DNA of 58,901 bases from Stellaceae bacterium (GTDB lineage: Bacteria; Pseudomonadota; Alphaproteobacteria; ATCC43930; CGMCC-115725): positions 1 through 58,901 of the forward strand of contig JBJMQW010000497.1 in NCBI GenBank assembly GCA_045802495.1, read 5' to 3'. The position numbers and the translations under genes are program-made. Positions 6,339 through 24,477 of the stretch are shown here, one piece after another (within the stretch, counting starts at the first letter, position 1; every line of letters starts with the position of its first letter). The notes beneath the pieces were generated by a model that saw only the letters and a program-made list of their open reading frames with translations, was not told the origin of the DNA and did no database searches.

Positions 6339-7868
6339 TCAGCTGTCGAGCGGCACCGCTGGAAGGGTCAGCGACGCCGGATTGATGTCGATGCCGGCAT
6401 ATACCTCAATCCATGCCTCGCCACCCTGCTCGACGGCGCAGACAAGCACATATTCGACATCCGGCGCCGGCGACGCTGCGCCGGTCCGGGCGCCGTACAG
6501 CATCGCTTGAATCTTTCGTTGGATTGTGCCGCTCGCATCCTGCAGCGTCTCAACCTGCTGGCGCGGCGGCACACGGCCGCTTCCCGATGCCCAGACCCGG
6601 TCGTACAGCTTGCCGTCTTTGGTCTGGAACTGCGGCCAGCCGATCATTCCCTGAGCCGGGTCAAGCCAAAATCCCCATTCATCTCGGGTCGCCGGGGTGA
6701 TCTGATCGAGCAGCGAGAAATACCGGCACTCGTCGGGCGTGCCGGCCGCCCCGAGATGCAACATGAAGAAGGCTTCTCGCGCCGGCAGATAAAGCCGGTG
6801 CAGCGAGACTGCGCCATCGGTGATCAGACCCACCGCTTCGACGCTGATCATCCCGCCTGCCTCGGGCGCTTTTACCTTGGTCGCGCCGGCGGCGAGGAGG
6901 AAGGGCGAAGGGTCGGCCGGAAACGTCATGCCGACACGGAAGCGGCTCGCCGCGCTGCCCGATAGTCCCCGCGGTGCCGGCCCGCCTGATAGGCCGCCCC
7001 CCATGGCTGTGGCGCCGGAGCCGGCGAGCCCGGCCGTGCGACGGCGGAGCAGCCATAGCCCGATCAAGACGGCGCCGCCAAAAAAGACGACGACCAATAG
7101 CATCCCCGTCCCGCCGGAGCCGGATGGCGTTGCCCGTCCTGTGTCAGCCTTGCTCTGGGCCATCAAATTGTCGAGATCGGCCAGCTTCTGCGCCACCGCA
7201 GGATCGCTCTGCGCCTTGCGGTCCGCCTCGGCGCGCCACTGCGCATAGCGGGGGTCGTCGCGATTGTCCTGGAAATAGGTCACGCTTTGCGGACGCGATA
7301 GCGAGTTCAGCAGAGACCATGCCAGCACCGCGTCCCACGCGCCAAAGCGAGACGATCCGGCATAGCCTGGCGCATAAGCACCGCCGCCCCACCCCGCCGG
7401 CGGCGAACGCCGTGGCAATGTGGCCGTGCCCCAGGAGTTCTCGTTCCAACCGGTCGACGGACGGCGGGTTGTCGCCCACGGGTCCGGCACAGGGCGCGCC
7501 TGCGACGCCCGATAGTCCCGCAATGCTTGGCTCGAGAGCTGCCGTGAGATGGCGCGATCACCACCGCGCGAATAGTCCAGACCAAAACCGCTGCGCGGAG
7601 CCCCCGACAGCCCGCCATAGCCTCCGCTGCCGACCGAGGGACGGCGCGCGGACCCGCCATAGCCTCCGAATGAGCCTCCCCCGCCAGGCCGCGTGTAGCC
7701 TCCGCTGCTTTGTGCGATCGCCGGCGAGGAAATCGCCAGCATTTCTCCGAGCAGCGGCAGCCCGGGCTGCACCGAGCTGCAAGCCAACCGTCCCGCCTCC
7801 AGTGTGAGGCAGACCAGAACAAGGCGAAGCACGCGTTTCAGCTTTGGCGGTCGCACAAGCGGTTCCAT
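6339..7868 (-). CDS. Membrane protein: Gly/Ser/Tyr-rich N-terminal region, one TM segment, C-terminal DUF2491 (YjfK-like) domain
   Basis: 509-aa ORF. Low-complexity stretch SSGGYTRPGGGGSFGGYGGS..., TM segment MLLVVVFFGGAVLIGLWLL, and a C-terminal ~230 aa (FRVGMTF...VSLHRLYL...ECRYFSLLD...WGFWLDP...) that resembles YjfK/DUF2491 from memory. Confidence 0.6.
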   Translation of the reverse strand: MEPLVRPPKLKRVLRLVLVCLTLEAGRLACSSVQPGLPLLGEMLAISSPAIAQSSGGYTRPGGGGSFGGYGGSARRPSVGSGGYGGLSGAPRSGFGLDYSRGGDRAISRQLSSQALRDYRASQARPVPDPWATTRRPSTGWNENSWGTATLPRRSPPAGWGGGAYAPGYAGSSRFGAWDAVLAWSLLNSLSRPQSVTYFQDNRDDPRYAQWRAEADRKAQSDPAVAQKLADLDNLMAQSKADTGRATPSGSGGTGMLLVVVFFGGAVLIGLWLLRRRTAGLAGSGATAMGGGLSGGPAPRGLSGSAASRFRVGMTFPADPSPFLLAAGATKVKAPEAGGMISVEAVGLITDGAVSLHRLYLPAREAFFMLHLGAAGTPDECRYFSLLDQITPATRDEWGFWLDPAQGMIGWPQFQTKDGKLYDRVWASGSGRVPPRQQVETLQDASGTIQRKIQAMLYGARTGAASPAPDVEYVLVCAVEQGGEAWIEVYAGIDINPASLTLPAVPLDS

Positions 7869-8423
7869 CCTGTTTTGCTCCGGAGGACGGCGGTCCTTGC
7901 AGCGTGGAATCCGACTCCGATCGGCATAGCCCGCGAAAGCCGGTGCCGGCTCAGCGTTCGGCCCTCCACCAAGAACGGAGCCACCCGAACTCGTCGATTA
8001 ATTCGCCCGTCAGATTGCGGAGACGACCGGGACCATGCTTCTCTCGTAGCGTGCGCGGCGGCTCGCTCGCGAGGGCCGGTTCGTCTCCTTCCGAGGCGGC
8101 GCGACGCCCGCCTTGCCCGACAGCGTGGGCACGTTCGATCGGCGCGAGGCCATAGCGGGTGAGACGATCGAGCTCTCGGGGGTCCTTCTGACGAGCGGCA
8201 TTCCGCAAGACCTCTACAGCAGCGCTGCCGGTTCTTCCTCGCGTGCCTGCTCGGGTTCGGGCATGATGGTCGCCCGCGTGATTGCAGCGTCGTCCATAAG
8301 AGGCTGCGGCGGGTCGTGATTGGAACGGCTTGCGGTTCCGTTGCGCGACCCTTACGAAATTGTTGACTGCCCGGGTCGCTCTCCGCACCGTCGCAGCAAG
8401 GGCGCCCCAGGAGAACATTTGCG

Positions 8424-10929: not shown

Positions 10930-11793
10930 ATGCGTCCGCCAGCTGCCGCCATGAAGGCGCTTCTCGACCAACCCGCGCTTCAGATCATGCCCGGCTGCGG
11001 CGACGGCATGGGTGCCCGGCTGATCGAGGAGGCCGGCTTTCGCACCGGGTTCGTCTCCGGCTCCAGCATCGCCGCGATGCGTCTGGCGATGCCCGATATG
11101 GACCTTTTGACCTTTCCCGAGATGGCCGATGCGGTCGAGACCGTCATTGCCGCGGCGCCCAATGTGCTGTGGCTGGCCGACGGCGACACCGGCTACGGCA
11201 ACGCGCTCGCCGTCCAGAAGACGATCCGCGCTTACGCTCGACGCGGCGCCGCTGCAGTGCTGGTCGAGGACAAGGTGTGGCCGCGTCCGCTCGGGCATAA
11301 CGGCGCCAAGCTGGTGATCGAGCGGGACGCCGCCATCCTGCGTTGCCGCGCCGCTGCCGAGGCATGCCGCGAGGAGGGCATCCTGTTGCTCGCCCGCACC
11401 GATGCGCGCACCTCGCGCGGCTTTGACGAGGCGCTGGCGCGGCTGAAATCGTTCGTGACCGAGGGCGCTGATATCCTGTTTCTCGACTCGCCGCAGTCGG
11501 AGGCGGAGATCCACGAGACCGTGGCGGCCTGCGACGGCAAGCCGGCGCTCGCCGTAACCTCGCCCGGCGGGCGGCACTTCATGCCGGGCAATGCAGAACT
11601 CGAACGCCTCGGCATCAAGCTCGTCGTCTTTCCGCAGGACGTTCTGGCGGCGAGCGTGCATGCCGTGCGCGCGGCCCTCGCCGGGCTCAAGGGCGGCGTC
11701 AAGCCACCGCTGGCGAGCCCGCCTGAGCTGGCGACGGCGATCCGCTCGGCCGACTACCTCGCCCGCGACGCCCGCTGGCCCGACCCGCGGTGA
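10930..11793 (+). CDS. Isocitrate lyase / PEP mutase superfamily protein (atypical active-site loop)
   Basis: Lies inside ORF 10714..11793. ATG 10930 follows AAAGGAGA. Motifs are [28 protein letters not shown] and [16 protein letters not shown]. The lyase KRCGH loop is replaced by RPLGH. Confidence 0.8.
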
Positions 11794-12812
11794 GCCGCTC
11801 GATGGTCCCGCTCTCCGTTCTCGATCTTTCGCCGATCACCGAAGGGAGCGACGCCGGTCAGGCGCTGCGCAATTCGCTCGACCTGGCGCGGCATGTCGAG
11901 GCGCTCGGCTACCAACGCTTCTGGATGGCCGAGCATCACAATCTGCCCGGCATCGCCAGTGCGGCGACGGCGGTGGCACTCGCCCATGTCGCGGCGGGTA
12001 CCGACCATATCCGGATCGGCGCCGGCGGCATCATGCTGCCGAACCACGCGCCGCTCTTGATCGCCGAGCAGTTCGGCACGCTCGCCGCCTTGCATCCCGG
12101 CCGGGTCGAATTGGGTCTCGGGCGCGCTCCCGGCTCCGACCAAGTCACCGCACGGGCGGTGCGCCGCGCCTTGCTTGGCGGCGAGGAAAGCTTTCCCCAG
12201 GAAGTCGTCGAGCTGATGGGCTATTTCCGAGCGGCCGAACCCGGTCAGGCGGTCGTGGCAGTGCCCGGCGCCGGGCTCGACGTGCCGATCTGGATCCTTG
12301 GGTCCAGCCTCTACGGCGCGCAGGTCGCGGCCTATCTCGGATTGCCCTTCGCCTTCGCGTCGCATTTCGCGCCGGCGATGATGATGGACGCGATGAGGAT
12401 CTACCGCGCGCGGTTCCGTCCGTCCGCGCAGCTCTCCTCCCCCCATGTCATGCTGGGGGTCGTTGTCGTCGCTGCGGAATCCCACGAGGAGGCGCGGTAC
12501 CTGTATTCGTCATTGCAGCAATCGTCGCTTAACAACCGGACGGGGCGCCGCGGCCGGGTGCCGCCGCCGGTCGAGAATTTCGAGGCGCGGCTCGATCCTT
12601 ACGCCCGCGCCATACTCGACGATGCGCTCGGTTGCGCCATTGTCGGCGCCCCCGACACCGTGCGCCGCGGCCTCGAGGATTTCATCGGTCGTACCGGCGC
12701 CGACGAGCTGATGGTGACCGCGAACATTTTCGACCACGCCAGGCGGAAACGCTCGTTCGAGATTGTCGCCGAACTGCACGGCGCGATGGAAACCGGCAAA
12801 TCAGGCCTTTGA
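11790..12812 (+). CDS. LLM-class (luciferase-like) flavin-dependent oxidoreductase, YhbW-like
   Basis: 340 aa. Motifs [29 protein letters not shown] and [10 protein letters not shown]. The GTGA start/stop overlap with the upstream gene suggests an operon. Confidence 0.85.
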
Positions 12813-12969
12813 CCGGTTCCAGCTAGACCCGCGCGAATGTGTCGCCCGTCAGAATGGCGCGCTCGCTGTCGGACATCCGGTCGGTGACCCAAAACGCGTC
12901 CACACCCTGTGACCTCCAATCCTCCCGAGAACTGGCTGATCCCGCCGCCGGTGGCGGGCGACGCTGGAC

Positions 12970-13731
12970 TTACAGGTACTTCGCGGGGCGGATCATGGCC
13001 CGCCACATATGCGCGACCGGGCTGTTGTCATAGCCGAGCCCCTGCTCCGGCTGCCGGAAGTTGCGGCCGATGACGTCGGTGAATTCCTCGAGCTCGACAT
13101 GCACGGTGGGATCGAATGAGTAGATGTCGTGTACGGTAATCTGTCGGCCCGACATGTACCATTTATGGTTCCGCATCCGCTTGTAGTCTTCCTCGATATA
13201 GGGGTCGGGGCGGTACTCCTGACCGAACGAAGTAATGTAGGATTGCGGGTATTCATAGCCGACCGACTCGTCGGGGTAGAAGCGCAACACCTGGTGGGCG
13301 CGGATTGCCCAGGTTACTTCCTCGTCGACATAGGGCTCGACCAGCTGCGCGCCCCAATAGCCGTGATCGCCGCGAATAAAGCCGATCGTCGAGATGTCGT
13401 GCAACAGGCAGGCGAGCACCATTTTCTCGGGCAGATCGGCCTTCACCGCATGCCGGGCGCTCTGCAATAGGTGCATGCAGGGGCCAAAGCGGTACTTGAA
13501 GAAATCCATCAGGGTCGGCTTTTCCGGCATTGCCGGCAGACGCGGATCGTCACCCATCAAGACGCGTGCGTTGGGATTGTCCTTCATCAGCGCGCCGGCG
13601 TTTGGCGCCGGGCTCATATCACCCTCGGCCATGCTGTAGAGGCGCGACTTGATGACGATATAGTCGAGCTCGCGGGACATCTTCTCTTCGAGCGCATCGG
13701 CACGCTGTGACAGGGTCATCGTGTCATTCAC
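12970..13731 (-). CDS. HD-domain protein, myo-inositol-oxygenase-like (MIOX/PhnZ-type diiron oxygenase superfamily)
   Basis: 253 aa. Motifs CMHLLQSARH, ACLLHDIS (HD), IRAHQVLRFYP and VHDIYSFD echo the MIOX motifs HLLQTAE / LIHDLGK / RYHSFYPWH / YDLYSK as I remember them. Confidence 0.55.
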   Translation of the reverse strand: MNDTMTLSQRADALEEKMSRELDYIVIKSRLYSMAEGDMSPAPNAGALMKDNPNARVLMGDDPRLPAMPEKPTLMDFFKYRFGPCMHLLQSARHAVKADLPEKMVLACLLHDISTIGFIRGDHGYWGAQLVEPYVDEEVTWAIRAHQVLRFYPDESVGYEYPQSYITSFGQEYRPDPYIEEDYKRMRNHKWYMSGRQITVHDIYSFDPTVHVELEEFTDVIGRNFRQPEQGLGYDNSPVAHMWRAMIRPAKYL

Positions 13732-13893
13732 GGCGTCTCTCCTCTATCCCTGGTTTCCATAAACTTAACAGATCGTTTGCGGTGGAGGATGTTCTTTCGA
13801 CATGGCCGCTCGTCGCGATCGCATGACAGACGGCCGGCTCCCCCGGGCAATGGCTGCGCATCTGCACAACGTCCGCCAAGTTTTTTGTTGCCC

Positions 13894-14286
13894 TTATACC
13901 AGGTCGATCCTCGCACGATGCCCGGACGTGGCGGCCAGGCGACGGTCGCGAGTCAACAGCGTCGCATCCAGGGCTTCCGCAAGCGCGACATAAGCGGCGT
14001 CGTAGGCTGTCAGGTTGTGCCGCAACTCCCAGACCCGCGGCAGCAACACGTCGTGCGGGTAGCGATCCAGGGGAAACCCGACCAAATAGTCCAGAGCCAT
14101 GCGGCCGCGCGCGGGATCGATCTGCCCGATCGCCGCATACCGCCGCAACACCTGCGTCACTTCAAGATCGATCAGGTGCGGCGCATGCAGCGTTTGCTCA
14201 GTACCAAACAAACGCTCCCGCACAGCGGCAGCGGCAGGCGTCTGCAACAACGCTTCGACGAGCGCCGAGGCGTCGACCACGATCAC
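13894..14286 (-). CDS. vapC: Type II toxin VapC (PIN-domain ribonuclease)
   Basis: GTG 14286. Sequence VIVVDASALVEALL...LTAYDAAYVALAEALDATLLTRD carries the PIN acidic residues. It overlaps the upstream antitoxin gene by 4 nt. Confidence 0.85.
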   Translation of the reverse strand: MIVVDASALVEALLQTPAAAAVRERLFGTEQTLHAPHLIDLEVTQVLRRYAAIGQIDPARGRMALDYLVGFPLDRYPHDVLLPRVWELRHNLTAYDAAYVALAEALDATLLTRDRRLAATSGHRARIDLV

Positions 14287-14513
14287 CTGGAGTCGCGCTC
14301 GGTGCGGACCGCGTCCTCCGGTGACGGGATGGGGTTGGTTGCGGGAAGCTTCTCCAAGCGCTCGCGCAATTCTGCGAGAGTGGGTTTCTCGGCCGACCGG
14401 CGGAGCTCGGCGAGAAGATAATCCGAGAGGGACATGCCCGCGAGTGCGGCGCGCGACTTCAGCTTGCGATGGAGCGCTTCCGGAACATTGCGGATCTGAA
14501 TCATCGTGGACAT
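14283..14513 (-). CDS. vapB: Type II antitoxin VapB (FitA/ribbon-helix-helix-like)
   Basis: 76 aa. MSTMIQIRNVPEALHRKLKSRAALAGMSLSDYLL is the typical N-terminal DNA-binding motif. It is translationally coupled to vapC. Confidence 0.8.
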   Translation of the reverse strand: MSTMIQIRNVPEALHRKLKSRAALAGMSLSDYLLAELRRSAEKPTLAELRERLEKLPATNPIPSPEDAVRTERDSR

Positions 14514-14545
14514 GTGGAAAACATGAAGTCATGTGAGACACATGT
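14510..14545. promoter_or_regulatory. Nested inverted repeats overlapping the vapB start; probable VapBC autoregulatory operator
   Basis: Sequence ACATGTG-gaaa-ACATGA-ag-TCATGT-gaga-CACATGT. An outer 7-bp and an inner 6-bp inverted repeat share one dyad centre. Confidence 0.5.
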
Positions 14546-14617
14546 AAAGGCCGGAGGTTGTTATTCCCGACCCTGCGTGAAAGACTGCCCGATACGCGCG
14601 GCATAGTGAGGGACCCA

Positions 14618-15802
14618 ATGATCACAAAATTCGACAGCTCCTATTACGGCACCGCCGACATGGAAAACCTCGGCTACAAGGGCACGCCGATCAACGACCG
14701 CTGCTATTCGAAAGAGGAGCTGGCGAAGGCGATGCACAAGGTCGTGGCCTATGCCAAATGCATGGACGAGCGCGGCTACGACACCTTCTGGATGGCCGAG
14801 CATCATTTCCAGCCCGAAGGCACGGAACTGATCCCGAACCTGTTGATGATGGCGATGCACCTATGCGGCATCACCAAGAACCTCAACATCGGGTGCGGCT
14901 TCAACATCGTGCCGATGTGGCATCCGCTGCGGCTGGCCGAGGATTACGCGATGGCCGACATCCTGACCGGCGGCCGGGTCATTTTCGGCGTCGGGCGTGG
15001 TTATCACACCCGCGAAGTCGAGACCTTTGGTTCGCCGCTCCTCGACCAGAACGCCAACCGCGAAATGTTCGAGGAGGGCGTCGAGGTCCTGTTCAAGGCC
15101 TTCGAGGGGAAGCCCTTCTCACACAAGGGCAAGTACTACACGATCCCGCCCGAGGTGCCGTATCGCGGCTACACGCTCAAAGAGATCACGCTGGTGCCGG
15201 CGCCGGAGCGGCTGCCGGTCGAATGCTGGCAGCCGATCCAATCGGGCTCCGAGCGCGCCTTCGACTTCATGGCGAAATACGGGATCAGCGGCGTGATCGG
15301 CGGCGGCTCGGCCGAAGGCGGGGCGGTCGAGCGGCACATGCTCGGGTTCCAGGCGGCCTATAAGCGCCGCGGCATCGAGCTCGAACTCGGCGAGCGGCTG
15401 GCGCTCGGCTACCAGTTCCACATCGCGTCCTCCCGCGAGCAGGCGATCCGCGAGGCGGCACCCCATTACGAAGAGAACATGAAAATGTTCGGCGAATTGC
15501 GCCTGGTGCGGGCCCTGACCGACGAGCAGATCGCAGCGATGCGCGACCCGCGCCTCGTCGGCACGGTCAAATTGCCGGCGATCGAGGATGCGGTGAAGGC
15601 CGGCGGCTTTCTCGCCGGCCGGCCGGAGGACATCATCGAGCAATTGAAGGCCGTCGAGAAGCGCTATCCCGGCCTCGACCGCGTCATCTGCGCCACGCCG
15701 CTCGGCACCCCGCTCGACATCCAGCTCGCAGACCTCGACCGCTTCGCAAAGGAGGTGATCCCCGCCTTCCGGGACACCCGAACCGCCGCCGCGGCGCAGT
15801 AG
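14618..15802 (+). CDS. LLM-class flavin-dependent oxidoreductase (intact copy)
   Basis: Lies inside ORF 14558..15802; ATG 14618. Motifs GYDTFWMAEHHFQPEG and GGRVIFGVGRGYH. This is the full-length parent of the two downstream fragments. Confidence 0.85.
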   Translation: MITKFDSSYYGTADMENLGYKGTPINDRCYSKEELAKAMHKVVAYAKCMDERGYDTFWMAEHHFQPEGTELIPNLLMMAMHLCGITKNLNIGCGFNIVPMWHPLRLAEDYAMADILTGGRVIFGVGRGYHTREVETFGSPLLDQNANREMFEEGVEVLFKAFEGKPFSHKGKYYTIPPEVPYRGYTLKEITLVPAPERLPVECWQPIQSGSERAFDFMAKYGISGVIGGGSAEGGAVERHMLGFQAAYKRRGIELELGERLALGYQFHIASSREQAIREAAPHYEENMKMFGELRLVRALTDEQIAAMRDPRLVGTVKLPAIEDAVKAGGFLAGRPEDIIEQLKAVEKRYPGLDRVICATPLGTPLDIQLADLDRFAKEVIPAFRDTRTAAAAQ

Positions 15803-16153
15803 GCCCGAGGCTCAGCCGCCCGGGCGCCGGCTCGCTATCAAAGCGCGACGTTTAACGCAAATCAGGCTTTTTTTGTCGAGCATAACGGTCGCGCCATAAC
15901 TGGCCTTCGGTTTATCAGCGGCCGAACGGCCTGGACCCACGCCGGCGATCGATGTCGCCTCTAGTGGCTCCCTGTAACCAGCGGATAGCCAGCGGATAGC
16001 AGGTTGGCGAAGCTCTGAAGCTCTCGGGTCTTTGCAGTTAAGCTGAGGAACCACTCTGGGAGCGCAGCAGCCGCGATCCGAGAAGGTTTAAATGCGGTAG
16101 CTATCGCGGCGGCGGTAAACAGCCCGACTGCTCCGCGCAAGCGAGAATGAGTG

Positions 16154-17920
16154 TTAATTAAAACGTAGCCCGAAAAGTCCGCCCGTTTCGGTTGCGTCTG
16201 TGAGTCTGATTGGAAGAACGAATTGATTCACATCGAACCCGGGACCGAAGCCATCTCTCGGAAGCGCGTCTGAATTCAGCGTGACGATATATTGGTAACC
16301 AATTGAGGAGGAGTGGTCGGCACCTAGCTGGAGCGCTTTTGCTACTTGGCGCTCGTCAACGCCGTCAAACAAATGACTATCATGGATAAGGAACCCGGGA
16401 CCAAACCCACGGCGGGTTGTCAAATCCGCCAGCATCAGATCAAAGCAGAAAATTTGCATATTCGTAATACCCTTGCTGCGCTGCGCGTCGATTCGGATCT
16501 CGACGCTCGGTCCATTTGGGGTCGCGCTGACAGTTAAGCGGCCGGCTCTCTCGTATAGAGCATTGGAAAGCTCCTCGAAAACTAAGATGGCTTCCGCGAG
16601 AATTTCTTGTCGTTCGTGATGATCATTCTGAAGCGCCTTGAAGAGACGCGCTCGTTCTATGTCGAGCTCGGCTTTTGTGCTTTCGATCCGCTCCGCAGTA
16701 CCTAGCCGCTGGCGAAGTCCTTCAGCCTCCGCCTCTGCCCGCCCGGCCTCTTCCTGGAGTCGGGCATAATGCTCAAGCGCGCCCCCGGACTGCAGGATCT
16801 CCATGAGCTGGCGTCGGCGGTTGTCCAGGCTTAGGCGCCGACGGTCTCTGTCGGAAATTCGTCTTTCCGTCGCCTGAATCTCGGAGGTTAGATGTGATCG
16901 CCGGTTCCGTAGGATGGCCAAATGGAACTCCTCTACCTCCTCAAAACGGCGGGCGACTGTGCCCGGCAGAACGATCCCGGCTTCGCCATAAAGCCGCTCG
17001 AGGTTGGAGGCAGCTGGGGCCCGCTCGGTTGCGAGCGCGTCTTCGAGTTGCAGAACCAACTCCCGGTCAGCAGTATTCGCATCATTTAGAACAGAAATCT
17101 CGCGAGTAATCTCTGAGGCTTCGCGCTCGAACTCCGTGTACTCCGGGACCACGTTGAAGTTCGCGAGCTGCTCACGAAGCCGCCGTGCTCGTGCCTTGGC
17201 TATTGTTACGCGGCTCCGAAGATCAGCGGCCGTCCCAAAGTATCGCCCGAGACCACCTTCCCTCGCAGCCTTGCGCAGTTCTGCCATCGCTTTCTCTTGG
17301 GTGCGTATCTCCTGGAACTCCGAAGAAATACGGGCATCGAGCCCAAGGAGGTAGGAGACGCATACCTGTTGGTCCCAAGGTTGCTGGTTCGTCGATTGGT
17401 GCGTTGGCGAAACGAAGCCGCCACTGTTCTGGCCGCGGGCAAAGTACGAGAACAACGACCGGAATGTCGGGCGAAACCGAGTGCGCTCATTTTCGTCCGG
17501 ATCGGTGCGCAGGCCGAAGAATTCAGCGCCCAGCAGCGCGCGCCATTGTTCATTGGTGAATACCAGTTCGCCGGTTCTCGCTTCAAGCGACGGCTGAATA
17601 GGCCATGAGGATGTGTCTCCACGCAGACGAATGCGTGATGGCTTGGTGCCAGAGCGGGTCACATCGATTATCGCGCCTCCGATATCTACCCGGGCCTCGA
17701 AAGACCAAGGCGCGAGCGCGTCCGAGCGGAAGATACTCTCCTTTTCGACATTGCCGCGGAAGACGAAATGGACCAGTTCGACGAAGCTCGTTTTGCCGGC
17801 GCCGTTGCGCGACTGGCGATCGGTCGCCCCTTCGCTCTTATCTGCAAGGAGGATGTTGAGGCCGGGACCGAACGCCAAGCCCTTAAAGCTCGGGAGATCA
17901 CTGGTCACACAGTGGATCAT
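16154..17920 (-). CDS. YydD/DUF2326-type SMC-like ABC ATPase (the ATPase class of ABC-three-component systems), without partner genes
   Basis: 588 aa. N-terminus MIHCVTSDLPSFKGLAFGPGLNILLADK, Walker A NGAGKTSFVELV, a ~300-aa Arg/Glu/Leu coiled-coil middle, and a C-terminal block GFLIHDSHLFDGVDERQVAKAL...YIVTLNSD. G+C is visibly lower than in the flanks. Confidence 0.7.
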   Translation of the reverse strand: MIHCVTSDLPSFKGLAFGPGLNILLADKSEGATDRQSRNGAGKTSFVELVHFVFRGNVEKESIFRSDALAPWSFEARVDIGGAIIDVTRSGTKPSRIRLRGDTSSWPIQPSLEARTGELVFTNEQWRALLGAEFFGLRTDPDENERTRFRPTFRSLFSYFARGQNSGGFVSPTHQSTNQQPWDQQVCVSYLLGLDARISSEFQEIRTQEKAMAELRKAAREGGLGRYFGTAADLRSRVTIAKARARRLREQLANFNVVPEYTEFEREASEITREISVLNDANTADRELVLQLEDALATERAPAASNLERLYGEAGIVLPGTVARRFEEVEEFHLAILRNRRSHLTSEIQATERRISDRDRRRLSLDNRRRQLMEILQSGGALEHYARLQEEAGRAEAEAEGLRQRLGTAERIESTKAELDIERARLFKALQNDHHERQEILAEAILVFEELSNALYERAGRLTVSATPNGPSVEIRIDAQRSKGITNMQIFCFDLMLADLTTRRGFGPGFLIHDSHLFDGVDERQVAKALQLGADHSSSIGYQYIVTLNSDALPRDGFGPGFDVNQFVLPIRLTDATETGGLFGLRFN

Positions 17921-17931
17921 TATTGGGCCTT

Positions 17932-17945
17932 GCGGATTAATCCGC
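17932..17945. promoter_or_regulatory. Perfect 14-bp palindrome GCGGATTAATCCGC, 12-25 nt upstream of the ATPase start codon
   Basis: Read directly from the sequence. No Shine-Dalgarno lies between it and the ATG. It could be an operator or a 5'-UTR hairpin. Confidence 0.3.
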
Positions 17946-17979
17946 GCTCAAACTCTACCGCGCCTACGATGAAGAGGAG

Positions 17980-18744
17980 GTCGAGCGCCGCTCCTCGACC
18001 AGAACGCCAACCGCGAGATGTTCGAGGAGGGTGTCGAGGTCCTGTTCACGGCGTTCGAGGGCAAGCCGTTCTCGCACCAGGGCAAGTACTACACGATCCC
18101 GCCCGAGGTGCCGTATCGCGGCTACACCTTGAAGGAGATCACCTTGGTGCCGGCGCGGGAGCGGCTACCGGTCGAATGCTGGCAGCCGATCCAGAGCGGC
18201 TCGGAGCGCGCCTTCGACTTCATGGCCAAATACGGCATCGGCGGCGGTTCGGCCGAGGGGGGCGCGGTCGAGCGGCACATGATCGGGTTCCAGCAGGTCT
18301 ATAAGTGCCGCGGCATCGATCTCGAACTCGGCGAGCGGCTGGCGCTCGGCTACCAGTTCCACATCGCGCCCTCCCGCGAGCAGGCGATCCGCGAGGCCGC
18401 CCCGCATTACGAAGAAAACATGAAGATGTTCGGCGAACTGCGCCTGGTGCGGGCCTTGACCGACGAACAGATCGCGGCGATGCGCGACCCGAAACTGGTC
18501 GGCACGGTCAGGCTGCCGACGATCGAGGATGCGGTGAAGGCGGGCGGCTTCCCTCGCCGGCCGCCCCGAGGACATCATCGAGCAATTGAAGGCCGTCGAG
18601 AAGCGCTATCCCGGCCTCGACCGCGTCATCTGCGCCACACCCCTCGGCACCCCGCTCGACATCCAGCTCGCCGACCTCGACCGCTTCGCAAGGGAGGTGA
18701 CCCCCGCCTTCCGCGACACCCGAACCGCCGCCGCAGCGCAGTAG
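17980..18744 (+). pseudogene. Truncated, frameshifted copy of the 3' ~770 nt of the LLM gene (equivalent to 15033..15802)
   Basis: By-eye alignment shows about 24 mismatches in the first ~255 aligned nt, mostly at third codon positions. There is a 12-nt in-frame deletion (ISGVIGGGS -> IGGGS) and a frameshift near 18550-18570. No 5' half is present. Confidence 0.85.
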
Positions 18745-18827
18745 ACCTGGATTAGCGGCCGGTCGCTCCCTCGGCGATATCAGCGCCGCCCGCGGCGGTC
18801 ATGCCTCCCGTGTCGCGGCAGCGGACG

Positions 18828-20786
18828 TCAGATTTCGACTTCGGCGCCGAGTTCGATGACCTGATCGGCGGGGATCCGGAAGAACTCGGTCGGATGTGTC
18901 GCGATGCGGGTCAAACCCGCATAGAGACGCTCACGCCATCGCGCCATCCCCGGGCGCGCGGTCGATTTGACATTGGTCCGTCCGACAAAGAAGGACATTT
19001 GATGGAGATCATGATCGAGCCCCGGGATATGAGCACGGGCAAGTTCGCGCGGAACGTTCGGCGTCTGCGCAAAGCCGAAATGGATGTCGATCTGCCAGAA
19101 GCCTGGGCCGAGCTGATGCGCACGTATTCGATCTTGTCGCGCCACCCGCGGGATATTCTCGGTGACGATGCGGACAAACAGCACCGTCTTGTGCAACACT
19201 TTGTTGTGCTTGAAGTTGTTCAGCAATGTTACCGGCACGTTGTCGGTCTGGTTCGTCAGATAGACGGCAATGCCCGACACGCGGGCCTCGCAGGCGCTGT
19301 CTGCGGTCGCGAGAAATGAGGAGAGGGGAACGGGCCGCGCCGACAGTTGCGCGAAGATAAGCTGGCGCCCCTCGCGCCACGTCGACATCACGATGAACAC
19401 AACCAACCCGATCGCCAACGGAAACCAGCCACCGCTCGGTATCTTCAGCGCATTGGAAGAAAACAGCGCGAGATCGACGAGCCCCAGCGGCAGGAAGGCC
19501 GCCGCTACGGCCGGCCATCGCCATCCCCAAACGCGGTGCGCCACTGCTACGGCGAGCACGGTCGTGATCACCATCGTCCCGGTAACGGCAAAGCCGTAAG
19601 CCGCAGCAAGCGCGCTCGAGCTTTGGAAGCCGAGGACCAGCGTCAGGACAGCGATGAGAAGCAGCCAATTGAGCTGCGGGATGTAAATCTGCCCGGATAT
19701 ATGGGCCGAGGTTTGCAGCACGTCGAGCCGCGGCATCAGGTCGAGCTGCATCGCTTGCCGGGTCAGCGAGAAGGCACCCGAGATTACGGCTTGGGACGCG
19801 ATGACGGTTGCCGCCGTGGCCAACACCACGAGGGGCAATATCGCCCAATCGGCCGTCATGCGAAAAAACGGGTTTTCGATAGCGCTGGCGTCGGCGAGAA
19901 CCAAGGCGCCCTGGCCGAGATAATTGAGCACGAGCGCCGGCAGAACCACCGCGAACCACGCGGCCCTGATCGGAAAGCGGCCGAAATGACCCATATCCGC
20001 GTAGAGCGCTTCGCCGCCGGTGATCGCCAGTGCGACGGCGCCGAGCACGACAAAGCTGATCGCCGGGTGGGCGGTGAAAAAACCCACGGCGTGGGTCGGA
20101 CTAACCGCCGCGAGGATGCTAGGGGAAGCGCCGATTTGGATCAGCCCGAAGATGCCCAGCACAGCGAACCACAGCGCCATGACGGGGCCGAAATATTGGC
20201 CAACGCGTTCCGTGCCGCGCTTTTGCACGATAAAGAGCGCGAGCAGCACGACTACAGTCAGTGGCAGGATGAAGGGTTTGAGGGCGGGTATCGCCACCTC
20301 GAGACCCTCGACGGCGCTCAGCACGGAAATCGCCGGCGTGATCATGCTGTCGCCATAAAACAACGCCGCTCCCGCCAGGCCGAGCATGGTCAGGACCCAG
20401 GGTAGGTGCTTACTGGGAGCGCCCCAGAGCGCCAGCGCGAGGAGGGCAAATATTCCCCCTTCGCCATGGTTGTCGGCGCGCATGATCAGGAGGACGTATT
20501 TGACGGCGACCACGAGCAGGAGGGCCCAAATCAAGCAGGACAAAACGCCGAGAACGTTTTCCTGCGTTAACGCCAGGCCGTGCTCAGGGTTGAAGCACTC
20601 GCGAAACGTGTAGACGGGGCTTGTCCCGATATCGCCGAAGACAACGCCGAGTGCCGCGACAACAAGGCCACCGCGGCCTGGCGGGGTCTCCTGGTCATCC
20701 TCTGCCAGCTGTTCGGTCGGGCGGCTTGTCGCGAGCGCTTGTTGCCTTGCTTCGCCAGAGACGACCTCGCCGGAATGATCCCCCAT
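18828..20786 (-). CDS. kup: KUP/HAK/KT-family potassium uptake transporter
   Basis: Lies inside ORF 18828..21185. Start moved to ATG 20786, preceded by AGGAG. Motif VVFGDIGTSPVYTF and ~12 TM segments. The longer ORF prefix is antisense of LLM fragment 3. Confidence 0.9.
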   Translation of the reverse strand: MGDHSGEVVSGEARQQALATSRPTEQLAEDDQETPPGRGGLVVAALGVVFGDIGTSPVYTFRECFNPEHGLALTQENVLGVLSCLIWALLLVVAVKYVLLIMRADNHGEGGIFALLALALWGAPSKHLPWVLTMLGLAGAALFYGDSMITPAISVLSAVEGLEVAIPALKPFILPLTVVVLLALFIVQKRGTERVGQYFGPVMALWFAVLGIFGLIQIGASPSILAAVSPTHAVGFFTAHPAISFVVLGAVALAITGGEALYADMGHFGRFPIRAAWFAVVLPALVLNYLGQGALVLADASAIENPFFRMTADWAILPLVVLATAATVIASQAVISGAFSLTRQAMQLDLMPRLDVLQTSAHISGQIYIPQLNWLLLIAVLTLVLGFQSSSALAAAYGFAVTGTMVITTVLAVAVAHRVWGWRWPAVAAAFLPLGLVDLALFSSNALKIPSGGWFPLAIGLVVFIVMSTWREGRQLIFAQLSARPVPLSSFLATADSACEARVSGIAVYLTNQTDNVPVTLLNNFKHNKVLHKTVLFVRIVTENIPRVARQDRIRAHQLGPGFWQIDIHFGFAQTPNVPRELARAHIPGLDHDLHQMSFFVGRTNVKSTARPGMARWRERLYAGLTRIATHPTEFFRIPADQVIELGAEVEI

Positions 20787-20940
20787 GCCCCGCTCCTGTT
20801 TTCCGCCGATCGGTTCACAACTTTTGGGATTGTTAAGGCGAACGCGAGCCCACGACCAGAGAACCCTAATACGGCTGTAGCGAAACCGGCACCAGATGAC
20901 GTCCAAGGAAGCGGATGACGGACGGCCTATGCCCGCCCGG

Positions 20941-21317
20941 ATCGTCAACTCGAACTGGGCGAGCGGCTGGCGCTCGGCTACCGGTTCCACATCGCCTCGA
21001 GTCGCGAGCAGGCGATCCGCGAGGCCGCCGCGCATTACGAAGAAAACATGAAGATGTTCGATGAATTGCGCCTCGTGCGGGCCTTGACCGACGAGCAGAT
21101 CGCGGGCGACCAGCGGCTGGTCGGCACGTCGAGGACGCGTCAAAGGGCCGGCGGTTTTTCTCGCCGGCCGCCCGGAGGACATCATCGAGCCAGCAGAAGG
21201 CGGTCGAGAAGCGCCATCCCGGTCTCGACCGCGTCATTTCCGCCGCGCCGCTCGGCATCCCAGCTCGAAGACCTTGACCGGTTTGCGAAGGAGGTGATAC
21301 CGGCCTTCCGCGGTTGA
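20941..21317 (+). pseudogene. Second, more decayed copy of the LLM gene 3' end (equivalent to ~15374..15802)
   Basis: Sequence ELGERLALGYRFHIASSREQAIREAAAHYEENMKMFDELRLVRALTDEQIA is followed by several indels or frameshifts. The terminal motif LDRFAKEVIPAFR is retained. It ends 43 nt before the amidohydrolase start. Confidence 0.8.
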
Positions 21318-21360
21318 GAGCCGGCCGAGGCGCGCGGCCGCGGAATAAAAGGAGACCGTG

Positions 21361-22428
21361 ATGGCCGAAGACGCGAAGGGCGAATACCGGGGCCTTGCTT
21401 ATCGTGAAGATCCTGCCCTGAAAGCGTGGCTCGCTAAGCGGCCATGCGAGGCGGCGCTGGAGCCGGCGCTGCCGATCATCGACCCGCACCATCACTTCTG
21501 GGACACGCCGCAGCGCGGGCACTATCTACTGCCGGAGTTGCTCGACGACATAAGCGGCGGACACAACATCGTCTCGACCGTCTTTCTCGAATGCCGCTCG
21601 ATGTACCGCAAGGACGGTCCCGCCGAGACGGCGCCGGTCGGCGAGGTCGAGTTCGTCAACGGCATCGCGGCGATGAGCGCATCGGGCGGCTATGGTCCCT
21701 GCCGCGTCGCCGAGGCGATCGTCGGCCATGCCGATCTGACCCTGGGCGCACGCGTACGCGAAGTGTTGGAGACCGAGATCCGAGTGGGTGGCGGGCGCTT
21801 CCGCGGGATCCGCCACGGTGTGTCGTGGGACGAGCACGAGGCGATCCAGAAATTCGCTACACGCGTCGTGCCGCCGCATCTGGTGCGCGACCCCAAATTC
21901 CGCGAAGGCTTTTCCCAGCTCGCTCCGCTGGGGCTCAGCTTCGAATCCTGGCAGTACCATCCGCAATTGCCCGACGCGATAGACCTTGCCCGCGCCTTCC
22001 CGAATACGACGATCATCCTCAACCATGTCGGCGGCGTGCTCGGCGTCGGCCCTTATCGCGGCCGTCGCCAGGAAATCCTCGCCGGATGGAAGAAGGACAT
22101 CACCGAACTGGCCAAATGCCCGAACGTCAACGTCAAGCTCGGCGGTGTCGGCATGACCTCCTTCGGTTTCGACTTTCATGAGCGCGACGTGCCCCCCTCC
22201 TCCGAAGACCTCGCCGCGGCTTGGCGGCAGTATATCGAGCCCTGCATCGAAGCCTTCGGCCCCAACCGGTGCATGTTCGAGAGCAATTTCCCGCCGGACA
22301 AGCAGTCGGGCGGCTACACCGAGCTGTGGAACGCGTTCAAGCGCATCACTTCGGGCGCGTCGGCGGCCGAAAAGACGGCACTCTACAGCGGGACTGCGGC
22401 GCGGGTTTACCGCATTACGGTTCCCTGA
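21361..22428 (+). CDS. Amidohydrolase-2 family metal-dependent hydrolase
   Basis: ATG 21361 follows AAAGGAGA. Motif IIDPHHHFWD (HxH) and a TIM-barrel hydrolase pattern. 355 aa. Confidence 0.8.
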   Translation: MAEDAKGEYRGLAYREDPALKAWLAKRPCEAALEPALPIIDPHHHFWDTPQRGHYLLPELLDDISGGHNIVSTVFLECRSMYRKDGPAETAPVGEVEFVNGIAAMSASGGYGPCRVAEAIVGHADLTLGARVREVLETEIRVGGGRFRGIRHGVSWDEHEAIQKFATRVVPPHLVRDPKFREGFSQLAPLGLSFESWQYHPQLPDAIDLARAFPNTTIILNHVGGVLGVGPYRGRRQEILAGWKKDITELAKCPNVNVKLGGVGMTSFGFDFHERDVPPSSEDLAAAWRQYIEPCIEAFGPNRCMFESNFPPDKQSGGYTELWNAFKRITSGASAAEKTALYSGTAARVYRITVP

Positions 22429-22456
22429 TCCGGTGCGACCCGGCCGAGCTTTGGCC

Positions 22457-23554
22457 ATGTCTCTTTTTCGATCCGCCATCGCCGCCGTCGTGTTCGGGGT
22501 CGGCGCGCCCGCGCTCGCCGACCCCGAAAACACCGCTTGGCCCAATTACCGGGAGGGCGATTTCACGATCGCGGATTACAAATTCGCCAGCGGCGAGACT
22601 CTTCCCCAGCTGAAGCTGCACTACCGTACGCTCGGCACGGCGCAGCTCAATGCCGCCGGCGAGATCGTCAATGGCGTATTGCTGTTGCAAGGCAATACCG
22701 GCACCGGCGCCAACTGGCTGCGGCCGACCCTGGCCGACGAGCTGTTCAGGGACGGACAGTCTCTGGATGCGAGCCGATATTTCATCATCATTCCCGACGC
22801 GCTCGGCCGCGGCGGCTCGAGCAAGCCCTCGGACGGGCTCAAGGGCAAATTTCCGCATTACCGCTACCACGACATGGTCGACAGCACACACCGGCTGGTC
22901 ACCGAGGGGCTCAAGGTGGCCCATCTGAACCTCGTCCTCGGCAGTTCGCTGGGCTGCATGCACAGTTTCATGTGGGCCGAGACGTACCCCGAGCTGATGG
23001 ATGCGATTGTCGGGCTCTCCTGCCAGCCGGTCGAGATCAGCGGCCGCAACCGGATTATGCGCCGCGCCGCGGCCGAGGCAATCCGTCACGACCCGGACTG
23101 GAACAACGGCAATTACGACAAGAACCCGACCCATTACATCTACAGCGCGGCGGCGGGATCATTCATGCCCGAGAGCGCTGCACGCGTCCAGGAGATGGCG
23201 CCGACCCGCGCCGCCGCCGACAAGCTTTATGACGAGCGAGTCGCGCGCATTGCCAAGGGCGATGCCAACGACTCGCTGTGGGCGATCGAGTCGATCGAGG
23301 ACTACAGCCCCGAGGGCGACCTTCCCAAGATCAAGGCCAAGGTGCTGCTGATCAACACGGTCGAGGACGAGGCCAACCCGCCGGAGCTCGGCACGGTCGA
23401 GCGGGCGATGAAGCGGATCCCTGACGGCCGCTATGTGCTGATCCCCTACAGCGACAAGACGCACGGGCATTTCACCCATTATTACGCCGCGCTCTGGAAG
23501 CCCTACTTGATCGATTTTATGCGGACGCTGCATCCCGCTGCCGCGGTTCGGTAA
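22457..23554 (+). CDS. Secreted alpha/beta hydrolase (homoserine-O-acetyltransferase-like fold)
   Basis: Lies inside ORF 22178..23554; ATG 22457. Signal peptide MSLFRSAIAAVVFGVGAPALA and nucleophile elbow GSSLG. Confidence 0.75.
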   Translation: MSLFRSAIAAVVFGVGAPALADPENTAWPNYREGDFTIADYKFASGETLPQLKLHYRTLGTAQLNAAGEIVNGVLLLQGNTGTGANWLRPTLADELFRDGQSLDASRYFIIIPDALGRGGSSKPSDGLKGKFPHYRYHDMVDSTHRLVTEGLKVAHLNLVLGSSLGCMHSFMWAETYPELMDAIVGLSCQPVEISGRNRIMRRAAAEAIRHDPDWNNGNYDKNPTHYIYSAAAGSFMPESAARVQEMAPTRAAADKLYDERVARIAKGDANDSLWAIESIEDYSPEGDLPKIKAKVLLINTVEDEANPPELGTVERAMKRIPDGRYVLIPYSDKTHGHFTHYYAALWKPYLIDFMRTLHPAAAVR

Positions 23555-23565
23555 GGGCGTCGCCA

Positions 23566-24477
23566 TTGTCCAGAGGCAAACCGATATTCCTCGACTACGA
23601 CCAGGCTGCGCTCGACGCTGCTTATGACCAGTCGGCCTACGCGGCGAACCGGGAGCAGTTGATCAAGCGCCGCATCAGGGACAGTGAGCTCGCAGGTCGA
23701 CGCGTCGGCGAGCCACAGCGCGTTGCCTATGGACCCACCGAAATCGAGCGGCTCGACATCTACCGCAGCGGATCCGTCGCGGCGCCGGTCTTTGTCTTTA
23801 TTCATGGCGGGGCCTGGCGCAGCGGCCGCTCGAAGGAGTTCGCGACACCGGCCGAGATGTTCCTCACCGCCGGGGCGCATTACATCGTGCCCGACTTTGC
23901 CTGGGTCCAGGATGTCGGTGGCAGCCTGATGGTGCTCGCCGAGCAGGTGTGCCGCGCCATCGCGTGGGTGTGCGAGAATGCCGCCCGTATCGGCATTGAC
24001 GCCACCCGGCTCTATGTCGGCGGCCAGTCCTCGGGCGGGCATCTCGCTGCAGTCGCCTTAACGACCGACTGGCAGCGCGACTTTGGTCTGCCCGCGGACA
24101 TCATCAAAGGCGGCATGTGCATCAGCGGCATGTATGATCTGACGCCAGTGCGGCTTTCAGCGCGCAACGCCTATGTCGCCTTCGATGATGCGACAGTCGC
24201 GGCACTGAGCCCGATACGACATCTCGACCAATTGCGAGCGCCGTTGATTGTCGCCTATGGAACTTGCGAGACTCCCGAATTCCAGCGCCAAAACCGCGAA
24301 TTCGCCGCCGTGGTGGAAGCTGCGGGCAAGCAGGTGCGGCTGCTGGTCGGAGATCACTACAACCACTTCGAATTGCCGGAAACCTTAGGCAATCCCTACG
24401 GTCTTCTCGGACGCGCAGCGCTCGAGCTGATGGACCTGACATCGGGGTCGCACGGATACGCGCACCGAAGCGAGTGA
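23566..24477 (+). CDS. Alpha/beta hydrolase (esterase / arylformamidase-like)
   Basis: 303 aa with a TTG start. Motifs FIHGGAWRSG and GGQSSGGHLA. Confidence 0.75.
   Translation: MSRGKPIFLDYDQAALDAAYDQSAYAANREQLIKRRIRDSELAGRRVGEPQRVAYGPTEIERLDIYRSGSVAAPVFVFIHGGAWRSGRSKEFATPAEMFLTAGAHYIVPDFAWVQDVGGSLMVLAEQVCRAIAWVCENAARIGIDATRLYVGGQSSGGHLAAVALTTDWQRDFGLPADIIKGGMCISGMYDLTPVRLSARNAYVAFDDATVAALSPIRHLDQLRAPLIVAYGTCETPEFQRQNREFAAVVEAAGKQVRLLVGDHYNHFELPETLGNPYGLLGRAALELMDLTSGSHGYAHRSE

Follow-up and report, generated by a model that had tools for sequence, protein, structure and literature searches.

The LLM locus and its closest described counterparts

Insertion-duplication, the entry of foreign DNA by a single homologous crossover that leaves the region of homology repeated on both sides, is also put to use in insertion-duplication mutagenesis. 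At icd of E. coli, e14 and phage 21 are inserted in the 3' end of the gene by an integrase and bring a replacement 3' end with them, and the minimal mobile elements of Neisseria exchange cassettes between conserved flanking genes by homologous recombination (double crossover). When DNA with one-sided homology was introduced into E. coli by conjugation, 56 of 60 integrants were single crossovers of trimmed, re-circularised molecules, which duplicated 109-950 bp of the homologous gene end, and true homology-facilitated illegitimate recombination (HFIR) with deletion was rare (4/60) (Amarir-Bouhram et al. 2011, PMC3240628). HFIR itself (de Vries & Wackernagel 2002; Prudhomme et al. 2002; Meier & Wackernagel 2003; as summarised in PMC3240628) is the mechanism put forward for Rhs, contact-dependent inhibition (CDI) and type VI secretion system (T6SS) loci, where displaced 3' ends stand in ordered arrays (Jackson et al. 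2009; Kirchberger et al. 2017, PMC5361080). Here we analyse an LLM oxidoreductase gene and the two truncated copies of it, f1 and f2, that follow on a 58.9-kb (58,901 nt) metagenome-derived contig of a Stellaceae bacterium (JBJMQW010000497.1), the whole of which we call the window. An ABC-3C ATPase gene lies between the intact gene and f1, and the potassium transporter gene kup between f1 and f2. This arrangement was very probably built by two successive integrase-free acquisitions through insertion-duplication (Campbell-type, single homologous crossover), a mechanism already known from the laboratory, of which the LLM locus is a well-resolved natural case.

The three LLM copies are co-oriented, f1 and f2 both lying downstream of the intact gene:

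14618-15802, plus strand: intact LLM oxidoreductase gene (394 aa; Pfam Bac_luciferase, E = 5.8e-41)
17986-18744, plus strand: f1, 5'-truncated copy equivalent to 15033-15802 (LLM nt 416-1185)
20923-21345, plus strand: f2, 5'-truncated copy from LLM nt 737 (equivalent to 15354) to the end

They are the sole long repeats of the window, with a similarity far above chance, and a repeat finder returns the intact gene and f1 as direct repeats (15033-15802 and 17986-18744) spaced 2,953 bp apart (15033 to 17986). In pairwise alignment, f1 is 91.8% identical to the intact gene over 797 aligned columns, and f2 is 88% identical at ungapped positions, with 42 gap columns and many indels. The 5' half of f1 is still in frame, with only a TCG/AGC serine-codon switch, which gives the appearance of two 1-nt indels near nt 624-628, and a clean in-frame deletion of 12 nt (4 codons, residues SGVI); a single +1 frameshift (an extra C) follows near 18551. 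The true end of f2 is a frameshifted TAA at ~21343-21345, where a tail ending in RAAAE and the stop abuts the Shine-Dalgarno sequence of an amidohydrolase gene. Both cargo genes, ATPase and kup, lie on the minus strand, convergent with LLM, and no candidate open reading frame for an integrase or transposase is present in 15803-21357, where the LLM copies and the two cargo genes leave nothing but spacers of at most 350 nt. The initial annotation, made from the letters alone, had already reported the order of these elements, the f1 deletion and late frameshift, the several indels of f2, the opposed cargo genes and the lack of an integrase or transposase, and its reading of the locus as serial insertions proved real and essentially correct. 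Some of its boundaries have moved: f1 starts at 17986 and not at ~17980, f2 starts at 20923 (= 15354) and not at 20941 (~15374), and f2 does not end at 21317.

According to the mechanism we propose, the ancestral order would have been VapBC (minus strand), LLM, amidohydrolase. In each event, DNA from another lineage would have carried the 3' part of its own LLM allele and whatever lay downstream of it; after trimming, an illegitimate end join at the level of microhomology would have turned this piece into a circle unable to replicate, and a single recombination with the resident LLM gene would have followed. This would leave a complete but chimeric LLM gene, behind it the foreign DNA up to the circle joint, then an LLM copy lacking its 5' part, and last the former downstream DNA. 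Event 1 would have brought in LLM nt 737 to the end, an 83-nt spacer and kup, and left f2 joined to the amidohydrolase gene. Event 2 would have delivered a 2,953-bp circle composed of LLM nt 416 to the end, ~30 nt of post-stop sequence, ~255 nt of unmatched DNA, the ABC-3C ATPase gene and 65 nt of the middle-component gene MC6, and a crossover at LLM nt ~859-917 would have left f1 behind. The anatomy of the repeats, the haplotype that precedes event 2, the reciprocal chimerism, the illegitimate joint and the order and relative ages of the events can be read from the sequences; the circular intermediate, the dependence on RecA, the route of DNA entry and a common mechanism for both events are what we infer beyond them.

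A pre-insertion haplotype and a reciprocal crossover

The state before event 2 is preserved in L172, a 6,184-nt contig of JGI 3300061856 that was reached via P0249, a member of the 90% cluster of the window Kup. In window orientation, L172 reads HD (minus), VapC (minus), ribbon-helix-helix antitoxin (RHH, minus), intact LLM, 83-nt spacer, kup (minus), f2 and the start of the amidohydrolase gene; it has one LLM gene, and both ABC-3C and f1 are absent. It aligns with window 12318-15805 at 98.85% identity without gaps and with 17986-21443 at 97.98%, the two alignments overlapping in its single LLM gene, and its upstream flanks and the block after f1 are 99.35% and 99.44% identical to the window, respectively. 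Judged by these identities, L172 is from the same species as the window.

The intact gene and f1 differ at 59 sites, and L172 shows a third state at none of them. It equals the intact gene at every such site from nt 447 to 858 and f1 at every one from nt 918 to 1176, where none matches the intact gene; between these runs lies a patchy zone of ~60 nt (nt 859-917) with four alternating sites (867F, 880I, 898F and 909I). The two window copies can accordingly be divided into the following segments:

14618-15475, plus strand: intact LLM nt 1-858, resident allele T (1 site, nt 366, differs from L172 in 858 nt)
15476-15534, plus strand: crossover zone in intact LLM, nt 859-917, with resident-type and donor-type sites alternating
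15535-15835, plus strand: intact LLM nt 918-1185 and ~30 nt of post-stop element, donor allele D2 (L172 matches f1 instead)
17986-18416, plus strand: f1 nt 416-858, donor allele D2 (L172 differs from f1 at 35/35 intact/f1 sites)
18417-18475, plus strand: crossover zone in f1, reciprocal of 15476-15534
18476-18744, plus strand: f1 nt 918-1185, displaced 3' end of resident allele T (no substitutions relative to L172 after nt 909)

The resident allele is intact(1..x) + f1(x..end) and the incoming allele is f1(416..x) + intact(x..end), and all 59 differences between the copies are allelic differences between resident and incoming DNA. This complementary split of the two alleles is the hallmark of a single reciprocal crossover between a circle and the chromosome. 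The idea that incoming DNA pushes the old 3' end downstream thus holds for f1 from nt ~918 to its end, which is resident, but not for f1 nt 416 to ~858, which came from the donor, so that f1 is a hybrid; the further claim that insertion was homology-driven and independent of an integrase finds direct support in the reciprocal pattern and in the illegitimate joint described below. On the donor side, f1 nt 416-580 is 97.6% identical to L046_int, from a related locus with LLM fragments of its own, and the post-stop sequence at window 15803-15835 matches the conserved element of L046-type loci. On the resident side, the extra C near 18551 is the sole lesion of f1, and L172 lacks it. An earlier breakpoint estimate at f1 nt 574-587 (maximum chi-square against L046) was discarded, because what it picks up is that the donor allele is mosaic when compared with L046, and not the integration crossover.

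The L172 sequence is very probably not an assembly collapse of two LLM copies, because its exchange zone contains 53 21-mers found in neither window copy, which no path through an assembly graph of window-like repeats could generate, and because its switch falls outside the 71-nt stretch (nt 1009-1079) that is the longest over which the copies agree fully and the place at which to expect a graph jump. Outside the LLM gene, f2 differs from L172 at 10/423 positions, kup at 3/1,959 and the spacer at 0/83; the excess in f2 is larger than relaxed selection alone would give, and gene-conversion patches or read mis-assignment between LLM copies are possible causes.

The divergence among the copies points in the same direction. 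By the Nei-Gojobori method, the ratio of nonsynonymous to synonymous divergence (dN/dS) is 0.12 both for intact versus f1 (dS 0.26, 249 codons) and for intact versus f2 (dS 0.47), and functional LLM orthologs across species give 0.08-0.16 at dS 0.22-0.33. An in situ duplication with one copy decaying would be expected to show a dN/dS of roughly 0.5. As the observed ratio matches the ortholog baseline, the copies are alleles from different lineages and not decay products, in line with the initial view that they had diverged as functional alleles (dS 0.26-0.47). Variation by silent cassettes of the pilS type was rejected, the differences being synonymous. The copies also differ in their tails: the intact gene and f1 end in DTRTAAAAQ and the stop, followed by parts of a conserved ~125-nt post-stop element, a combination typical of another context group (including L046, L001, L002, L027, L032, L081 and L084), and f2 has a different tail type. 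In alignment, the f2 tail, the Shine-Dalgarno sequence and the amidohydrolase start are colinear with the LLM-amidohydrolase junction of L095 and L097, where no cargo intervenes, and f2 leads into the amidohydrolase gene just as LLM does at all 13 empty sites of related genomes; from this colinearity, f2 is the original 3' end of the resident LLM gene.

These results bear on the alternative, namely that LLM was duplicated in tandem in situ (or existed as three tandem paralogues) and the copies were then deleted in part and decayed, or that a metagenome assembler stitched strains together. The window is indeed a metagenome-derived contig, and one related locus, L001, carries a nearly full-length second LLM copy (nt 152 to the end). 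A dN/dS of 0.12 is, however, incompatible with decay in situ, the f2 tail type is unlike those of f1 and the intact gene, and full-length tandem LLM genes, the arrangement that would make the fragments mere truncated paralogues, occur in none of the surveyed genomes; nor can an assembler create joints that share only 2-4 nt, and the joints recur in independent assemblies. We give duplication or artefact almost no credence.

Insertion-duplication as observed in E. coli resembles the LLM locus closely. The homologous gene end is directly repeated on both sides of foreign DNA, the duplication is of variable length (109-950 bp there, about 30-1,030 nt at LLM loci), the repeats are reciprocal hybrids formed without a dedicated recombinase, and trimming and re-closure of the molecule before integration, established in E. 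coli, are what we propose here. The LLM case differs in being natural, with alleles diverged to the level of species (~92% identity) in place of an engineered plasmid, in that the homologous arm includes the stop codon so that the gene stays intact, and in being serial at one gene and recurrent in several species.

HFIR of a linear fragment, in which homologous exchange at the 5' part of LLM, or upstream of it, would be coupled to an illegitimate join to resident LLM nt 416, would share with the locus one homologous interaction, one illegitimate joint with a few bases of microhomology at the other insert end, and the capture of heterologous DNA beside the anchor, and it is the explanation offered for the comparable T6SS and Rhs arrays (PMC5361080). 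It predicts, however, that f1 should be wholly resident, whereas f1 nt 416-858 differs from the resident sequence (L172) at 35/35 informative sites. Moreover, HFIR is a non-reciprocal insertion with deletion that normally removes recipient DNA (PMC3240628), while the product here is a reciprocal duplication. We regard HFIR as very unlikely for this locus.

The two cargos, their joints and their order

Cargo 1, between the intact gene and f1, consists of the following parts:

15836-16089, no strand: distal part of cargo 1, of lower GC (about 54-59%)
16090-17920, minus strand: ABC-3C ATPase CDS at 16154-17920 (588 aa, intact) with 64 nt of native 3' flank (Pfam DUF2326, CTD10)
17921-17985, minus strand: remnant of the MC6 middle component, its last ~21 codons (ALDLLFIVGAVEFERGLIRKAQ, then the stop), from alignment to MC6 of L161, L163 and L164
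17984-17989 (17985/17986), no strand: illegitimate joint between the MC6 interior and LLM nt 416, with 2-4 nt of microhomology (GCG or GGCG)

The ATPase is a full-length match to PADLOC PDC-M68B (E = 3.6e-162), and its homologs (78-89% identical) always stand last in an operon of a 302-aa CTD10 protein (PDC-M68A), an 81-aa MC6 and the ATPase. All that remains of MC6 in the window is its last ~21 residues, encoded by the 65 nt that separate f1 from the ATPase start; homology to MC6 sets in precisely at the joint, and there is no effector gene. The cargo initially described as defence-like is thus a truncated ABC-3C/PDC-M68 system, of which the ATPase and 21 MC6 codons are present. Because both the MC6 gene and the LLM gene are cut at 17985/17986, the joint is a breakpoint and not the end of a cassette, and it would represent the closure point of the proposed circle. 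The other insert end runs on continuously from the LLM stop codon into the post-stop element, so that the insert plus repeat contains one novel joint. Beyond the ATPase stop, homology to ABC-3C loci extends for another 64 nt, and the distal part of cargo 1 (15836-16089) has no match in any locus.

Exact-protein look-ups returned no record for the 588-aa ATPase and a single match, on a 1,358-nt contig, for the intact LLM protein. That contig belongs to JGI 3300067032, in which an ATPase at least 90% identical lies on a 2,805-nt contig, both contigs ending at repeats; the ATPase contig carries a 201-aa antisense ORF 97 nt upstream, a spacing equal to that of f1 in the window. Short-read assemblies probably break at such scars, and structures of this kind would then be under-detected.

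A different origin of the joint would be a pre-formed LLM/ABC-3C/f1 module, moved by double crossover, with a linear piece that spans both LLM copies replacing the resident LLM, or excised via its repeats and re-integrated, in which case the joint would be older than the event and would have travelled along in the module. Excision and re-integration would yield the same final structure as the single-crossover model, and modules evidently persist and could spread, as a DUF2283 cassette has the same LLM boundary in four species and L001, L011 and L003 share an ancient joint. A double crossover would, however, require two independent crossovers within the same 60-nt zone, the donor part of f1 (nt 416-858) has kept its reading frame, showing no more than a 4-codon deletion and changes of the synonymous type, and resembles a functional gene and not an old pseudogene arm, and no other locus with the joint between MC6 and LLM nt 416 was found. 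We consider such a module unlikely, and continue with acquisition by single crossover.

Cargo 2, between f1 and f2, is made up as follows:

18745-18827, no strand: native spacer between LLM stop and kup stop, 83 nt (0/83 sites differ in L172)
18828-20786, minus strand: kup potassium transporter gene, 652 aa, intact (Pfam K_trans, K_trans_C; NCBIfam kup)
20787-20922, no strand: kup upstream region, ending at the joint with LLM nt 737 (20922/20923); homology to L167 stops 33 nt upstream of the kup start

Kup homologs are 84-91% identical. The spacer has its homolog in L167 and L168, again between the LLM tail and kup, and the loci L167-L171 (Kup 89% identical) have the order LLM remnant, VapC (minus), RHH (minus), short LLM tail remnant plus spacer, and kup (minus); one further contig, of 11.9 kb from JGI 3300047160, has a full LLM gene, VapBC and then kup. 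As kup natively adjoins LLM in this donor-like lineage, event 1 imported an LLM allele together with its native neighbour, and the initial treatment of kup as a cassette has to be given up in favour of a native convergent neighbour. A possible tie between the 3' part of f1 and the kup-linked LLM remnant of L167 was dropped for want of specific grouping.

The two events can also be ordered. L172 has kup and f2 only, and the kup/f2 joint at LLM nt 737 is common to L172 (~99%), L174 (91%) and L173 (83%), so that event 1 predates the splits among these lineages, in keeping with the heavy decay of f2. Event 2 is recent, because the extra C is the sole lesion in the resident-derived part of f1. From these comparisons, event 1 (kup) is the first and old, and event 2 (ABC-3C) the second, recent and polymorphic within the species, consistent with the initial proposal of serial insertions with the oldest remnant furthest away. 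The single-base frameshift of f1 near 18551 is possibly among those that call for caution in assemblies from long reads: in several long-read metagenome-assembled genomes (MAGs; L012, L041, L076, L048 and L023) the amidohydrolase gene is split across frames, most likely through homopolymer sequencing error and not as a real pseudogene.

The locus is flanked by the two remaining members of the ancestral order:

13894-14557, minus strand: VapBC, with VapC PIN at 13894-14286, RHH antitoxin at 14283-14513 and ~45 nt of promoter/operator (Pfam PIN, FitA-like_RHH)
21358-22428, plus strand: Amidohydro_2 gene (Pfam Amidohydro_2), ancestral operon partner of LLM

By synteny, VapBC is resident upstream context, kept upstream of LLM in L172, L009 and L090. 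The amidohydrolase probably starts at the ATG at 21361, according to ortholog alignment. Elsewhere, VapBC is a discrete ~665-bp unit (PIN stop, RHH antitoxin, ~45 nt palindromic operator) with the same ends at different sites: it sits between two LLM remnants beside kup in L167-171 (L167 reverse complement ~7244-7905) and takes the place of the LLM 3' part in L174 (reverse complement 258-891).

Several other origins were tried for the region and rejected. A megablast search of 14000-23600 against PLSDB, made with a plasmid origin in mind, gave only a 52-nt kup match. An integron cassette does not fit, given the lack of an integrase, the opposite orientation of the cargo and a joint inside a gene. 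A scan of the region for promoters and terminators gave nothing above shuffled expectation.

LLM loci in related genomes

Two collection scans with the LLM protein yielded 160 loci, mostly from Stellaceae and other uncultured soil Alphaproteobacteria, with the following downstream contexts:

13 loci: empty sites, amidohydrolase 12-250 nt after the LLM stop
8 loci: amidohydrolase 0.27-3.2 kb downstream, other genes between, without LLM fragment
6 loci: extra LLM fragments (L001, L003, L007, L011, L037 and L046, all long-read MAGs)
97 loci: other downstream context
35 loci: contig end too near to judge the downstream context

The empty LLM-amidohydrolase sites and alternative cargos that the initial annotation had suggested looking for are thus both present in related genomes, and two of the empty sites (L009 and L090) share the VapBC pair upstream of LLM. 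In the six fragment-bearing loci, which represent six other species, every extra LLM copy is downstream of the intact gene, co-oriented and 5'-truncated, with up to three or four fragments each in L001, L011 and L046; counting L167-171, the architecture with other cargos is seen in L001, L003, L007, L011, L037, L046 and L167-171. The cargos between LLM copies elsewhere include the DUF2283 cassette (four species, same LLM boundary), a HigA-like helix-turn-helix (HTH) gene, a ParE/antitoxin pair and DUF433. In L046, a low-GC (56%) cargo at 12300-17950, between LLM fragments, holds a complete Septu system (PtuA 16377-17804, E = 2.6e-133; PtuB 15613-16380, E = 1.2e-78), a radical-SAM protein and a 2OG-Fe(II) oxygenase, and it shows that intact defence systems occupy this slot in another species. 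Some of the arrays are old and inherited, because L001, L011 and L003 share one joint. The variable slot, with alternative cargos and no mobility genes, recalls the minimal mobile elements of Neisseria, which differ in using a double crossover and in leaving no duplicated fragment of a flanking gene.

The LLM arrays are also similar to those at Rhs, CDI and T6SS loci, in which a conserved 5' gene part serves as anchor, new arrivals push older 3' ends and companion genes downstream without an integrase, and ordered orphan 3' fragments follow one intact gene, as do f1 and f2 in the window and the arrays of L001, L011 and L046. There, however, the 3' ends are distinct toxin tips with immunity genes under diversifying selection, whereas LLM 3' ends are interchangeable enzyme alleles under purifying selection (dN/dS 0.12), the LLM cargo is whatever lay downstream in the donor, and the mechanism is resolved as a reciprocal single crossover in place of the HFIR proposed for those systems.

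The survey also bears on an integrase, acting in trans or since lost, that would have used an attB inside LLM to insert elements with replacement 3' ends and so produced a tandem array of decayed islands. The topology of intact gene, island and displaced 3' end fits such a history, as at icd, where e14 and phage 21 keep the gene intact with a new, mostly synonymously differing 3' end and displace the old end downstream; and the fragments beside three cargos start within LLM nt 737-749. There is, however, no integrase here or in any cargo examined, the window has no tRNA gene, fragment starts are scattered across loci (nt 132, 152, 295, 416, 628, 737, ~745 and ~1160), the joint cuts through the MC6 gene, and ~450 nt separate the exchange point (nt 859-917) from the fragment boundary, although the two should coincide under site-specific recombination. 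The icd elements differ accordingly, with an integrase, a fixed core site and a short duplication, from the LLM locus with its variable boundaries and distant exchange point. An integrase is in our judgement scarcely credible. A tRNA or known RNA as target was rejected as well, since the window has no tRNA and tRNA genes near LLM in other loci are inconsistent. The context of LLM is in fact very variable, with tRNA-Gly directly after the gene in L018 (10787-10860) and tRNA genes (Arg, Thr, Gln, Leu) 0.15-2.5 kb upstream of it in L002 (8537), L027 (8758), L037 (9777) and L046 (7500). An apparent boundary at nt 416/419 shared with L046_fC was spurious, as homology there runs on upstream in diverged form.

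The preference for two insertion-duplications has to be held against several observations that weigh on the other side. The starts within nt 737-749 belong to fragments of three unrelated cargos, namely kup (window 20922/20923), the HigA-like HTH gene (L001 ~11885) and DUF2283 (L007 ~11309, L011 ~11853, L037 ~11837 and L046 ~11855), with no relation among the sequences that adjoin the boundary on its outer side; such clustering does not follow from the model, by our own rough, post hoc estimate its probability by chance is ~0.006, and random breakage is no explanation. The whole intact LLM gene, nt 1-415 included, is nearer to L046-type alleles (94%) than to other amidohydrolase-linked LLM genes (~90%), and further allelic exchange must therefore have occurred that the model leaves unexplained. 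None of ~170 loci supplied a full-length donor, that is, an allele above 98% identity from end to end; with LLM alleles being mosaic from species to species, the attempt to name a donor by nearest neighbour was rejected. L172 is a single short-read contig, and the alternating sites of its exchange zone need an extra assumption, either patchy heteroduplex repair or standing polymorphism. The exception to the pattern of 5'-truncated downstream copies is L174 (reverse complement 2-212), in which an LLM copy upstream of kup ends at nt ~646, followed by VapBC, and is thus truncated at its 3' side, so other rearrangements also take place at the locus. Event 1, for which there is no same-species pre-insertion haplotype, is presumed by analogy to have followed the same course as event 2, and no circular intermediate, donor genome or RecA dependence was observed.

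If the preferred reading holds, the locus gives a concrete and unusually complete natural answer to the question of how defence, toxin-antitoxin and accessory genes move without a nearby mobile element, namely by capture through one homologous crossover in a conserved gene and one illegitimate end join, with before-state, after-state, crossover interval and joint all preserved. The truncated LLM copies form an ordered record of transfers, the older common to lineages at 83-91% and the younger polymorphic among strains at ~99%, and the capture is blind to function, the defence operon having arrived truncated. Integrase-free acquisition leaves a signature that can be searched for, namely an intact gene followed, a few kilobases on, by a 5'-truncated copy in the same orientation, although short-read assemblies tend to break exactly at such scars. 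More speculatively, and with considerable doubt on our part, the conserved LLM gene could serve soil Alphaproteobacteria (Stellaceae and relatives) as a landing pad common to the whole guild, where fragments with an LLM 3' arm circularise, integrate through the recombination machinery of the host, excise via the repeats and move on, so that defence, toxin-antitoxin and transporter genes spread as recombination-dependent cassettes without mobility genes. Were this true, the process could be common and largely unseen, since the scars break short-read assemblies. The clustered starts at nt 737-749 may point to a place where processing tends to stop, such as a Chi-like site halting end degradation, which would make the arm boundary semi-specific.

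A few further features of the locus and the window deserve mention. The conserved ~125-nt non-coding element after the LLM stop is present in many loci (L027 11186-11310, L032, L081/L082 and L084 5239-5370), also after fragments in L001, L007 and L046, with partial copies at window 15803-15835 and 18745-18805 and an inverted partial copy after the last LLM fragment of L046 (~19644). It matches no Rfam family, has no further occurrence elsewhere in the window, and holds a GCCGCCGG...CGGCGGC hairpin followed by ...ACATCGTCCGCTGGGCCGAATGA... Upstream in the window, an HD-domain gene (12970-13731) and a second, distant LLM gene of the MsnO8 family (11790-12812; NCBIfam TIGR03558, E = 9e-130) precede VapBC; the latter is syntenic among amidohydrolase-linked loci, and its DNA is too diverged for recombination with the LLM gene studied here. 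At least ~12 kb downstream of the LLM locus, an 85-nt direct-repeat family (33765-33849, 40986-41070 and 44198-44282; 62-74% identity) probably reflects conserved motifs of paralogous genes.

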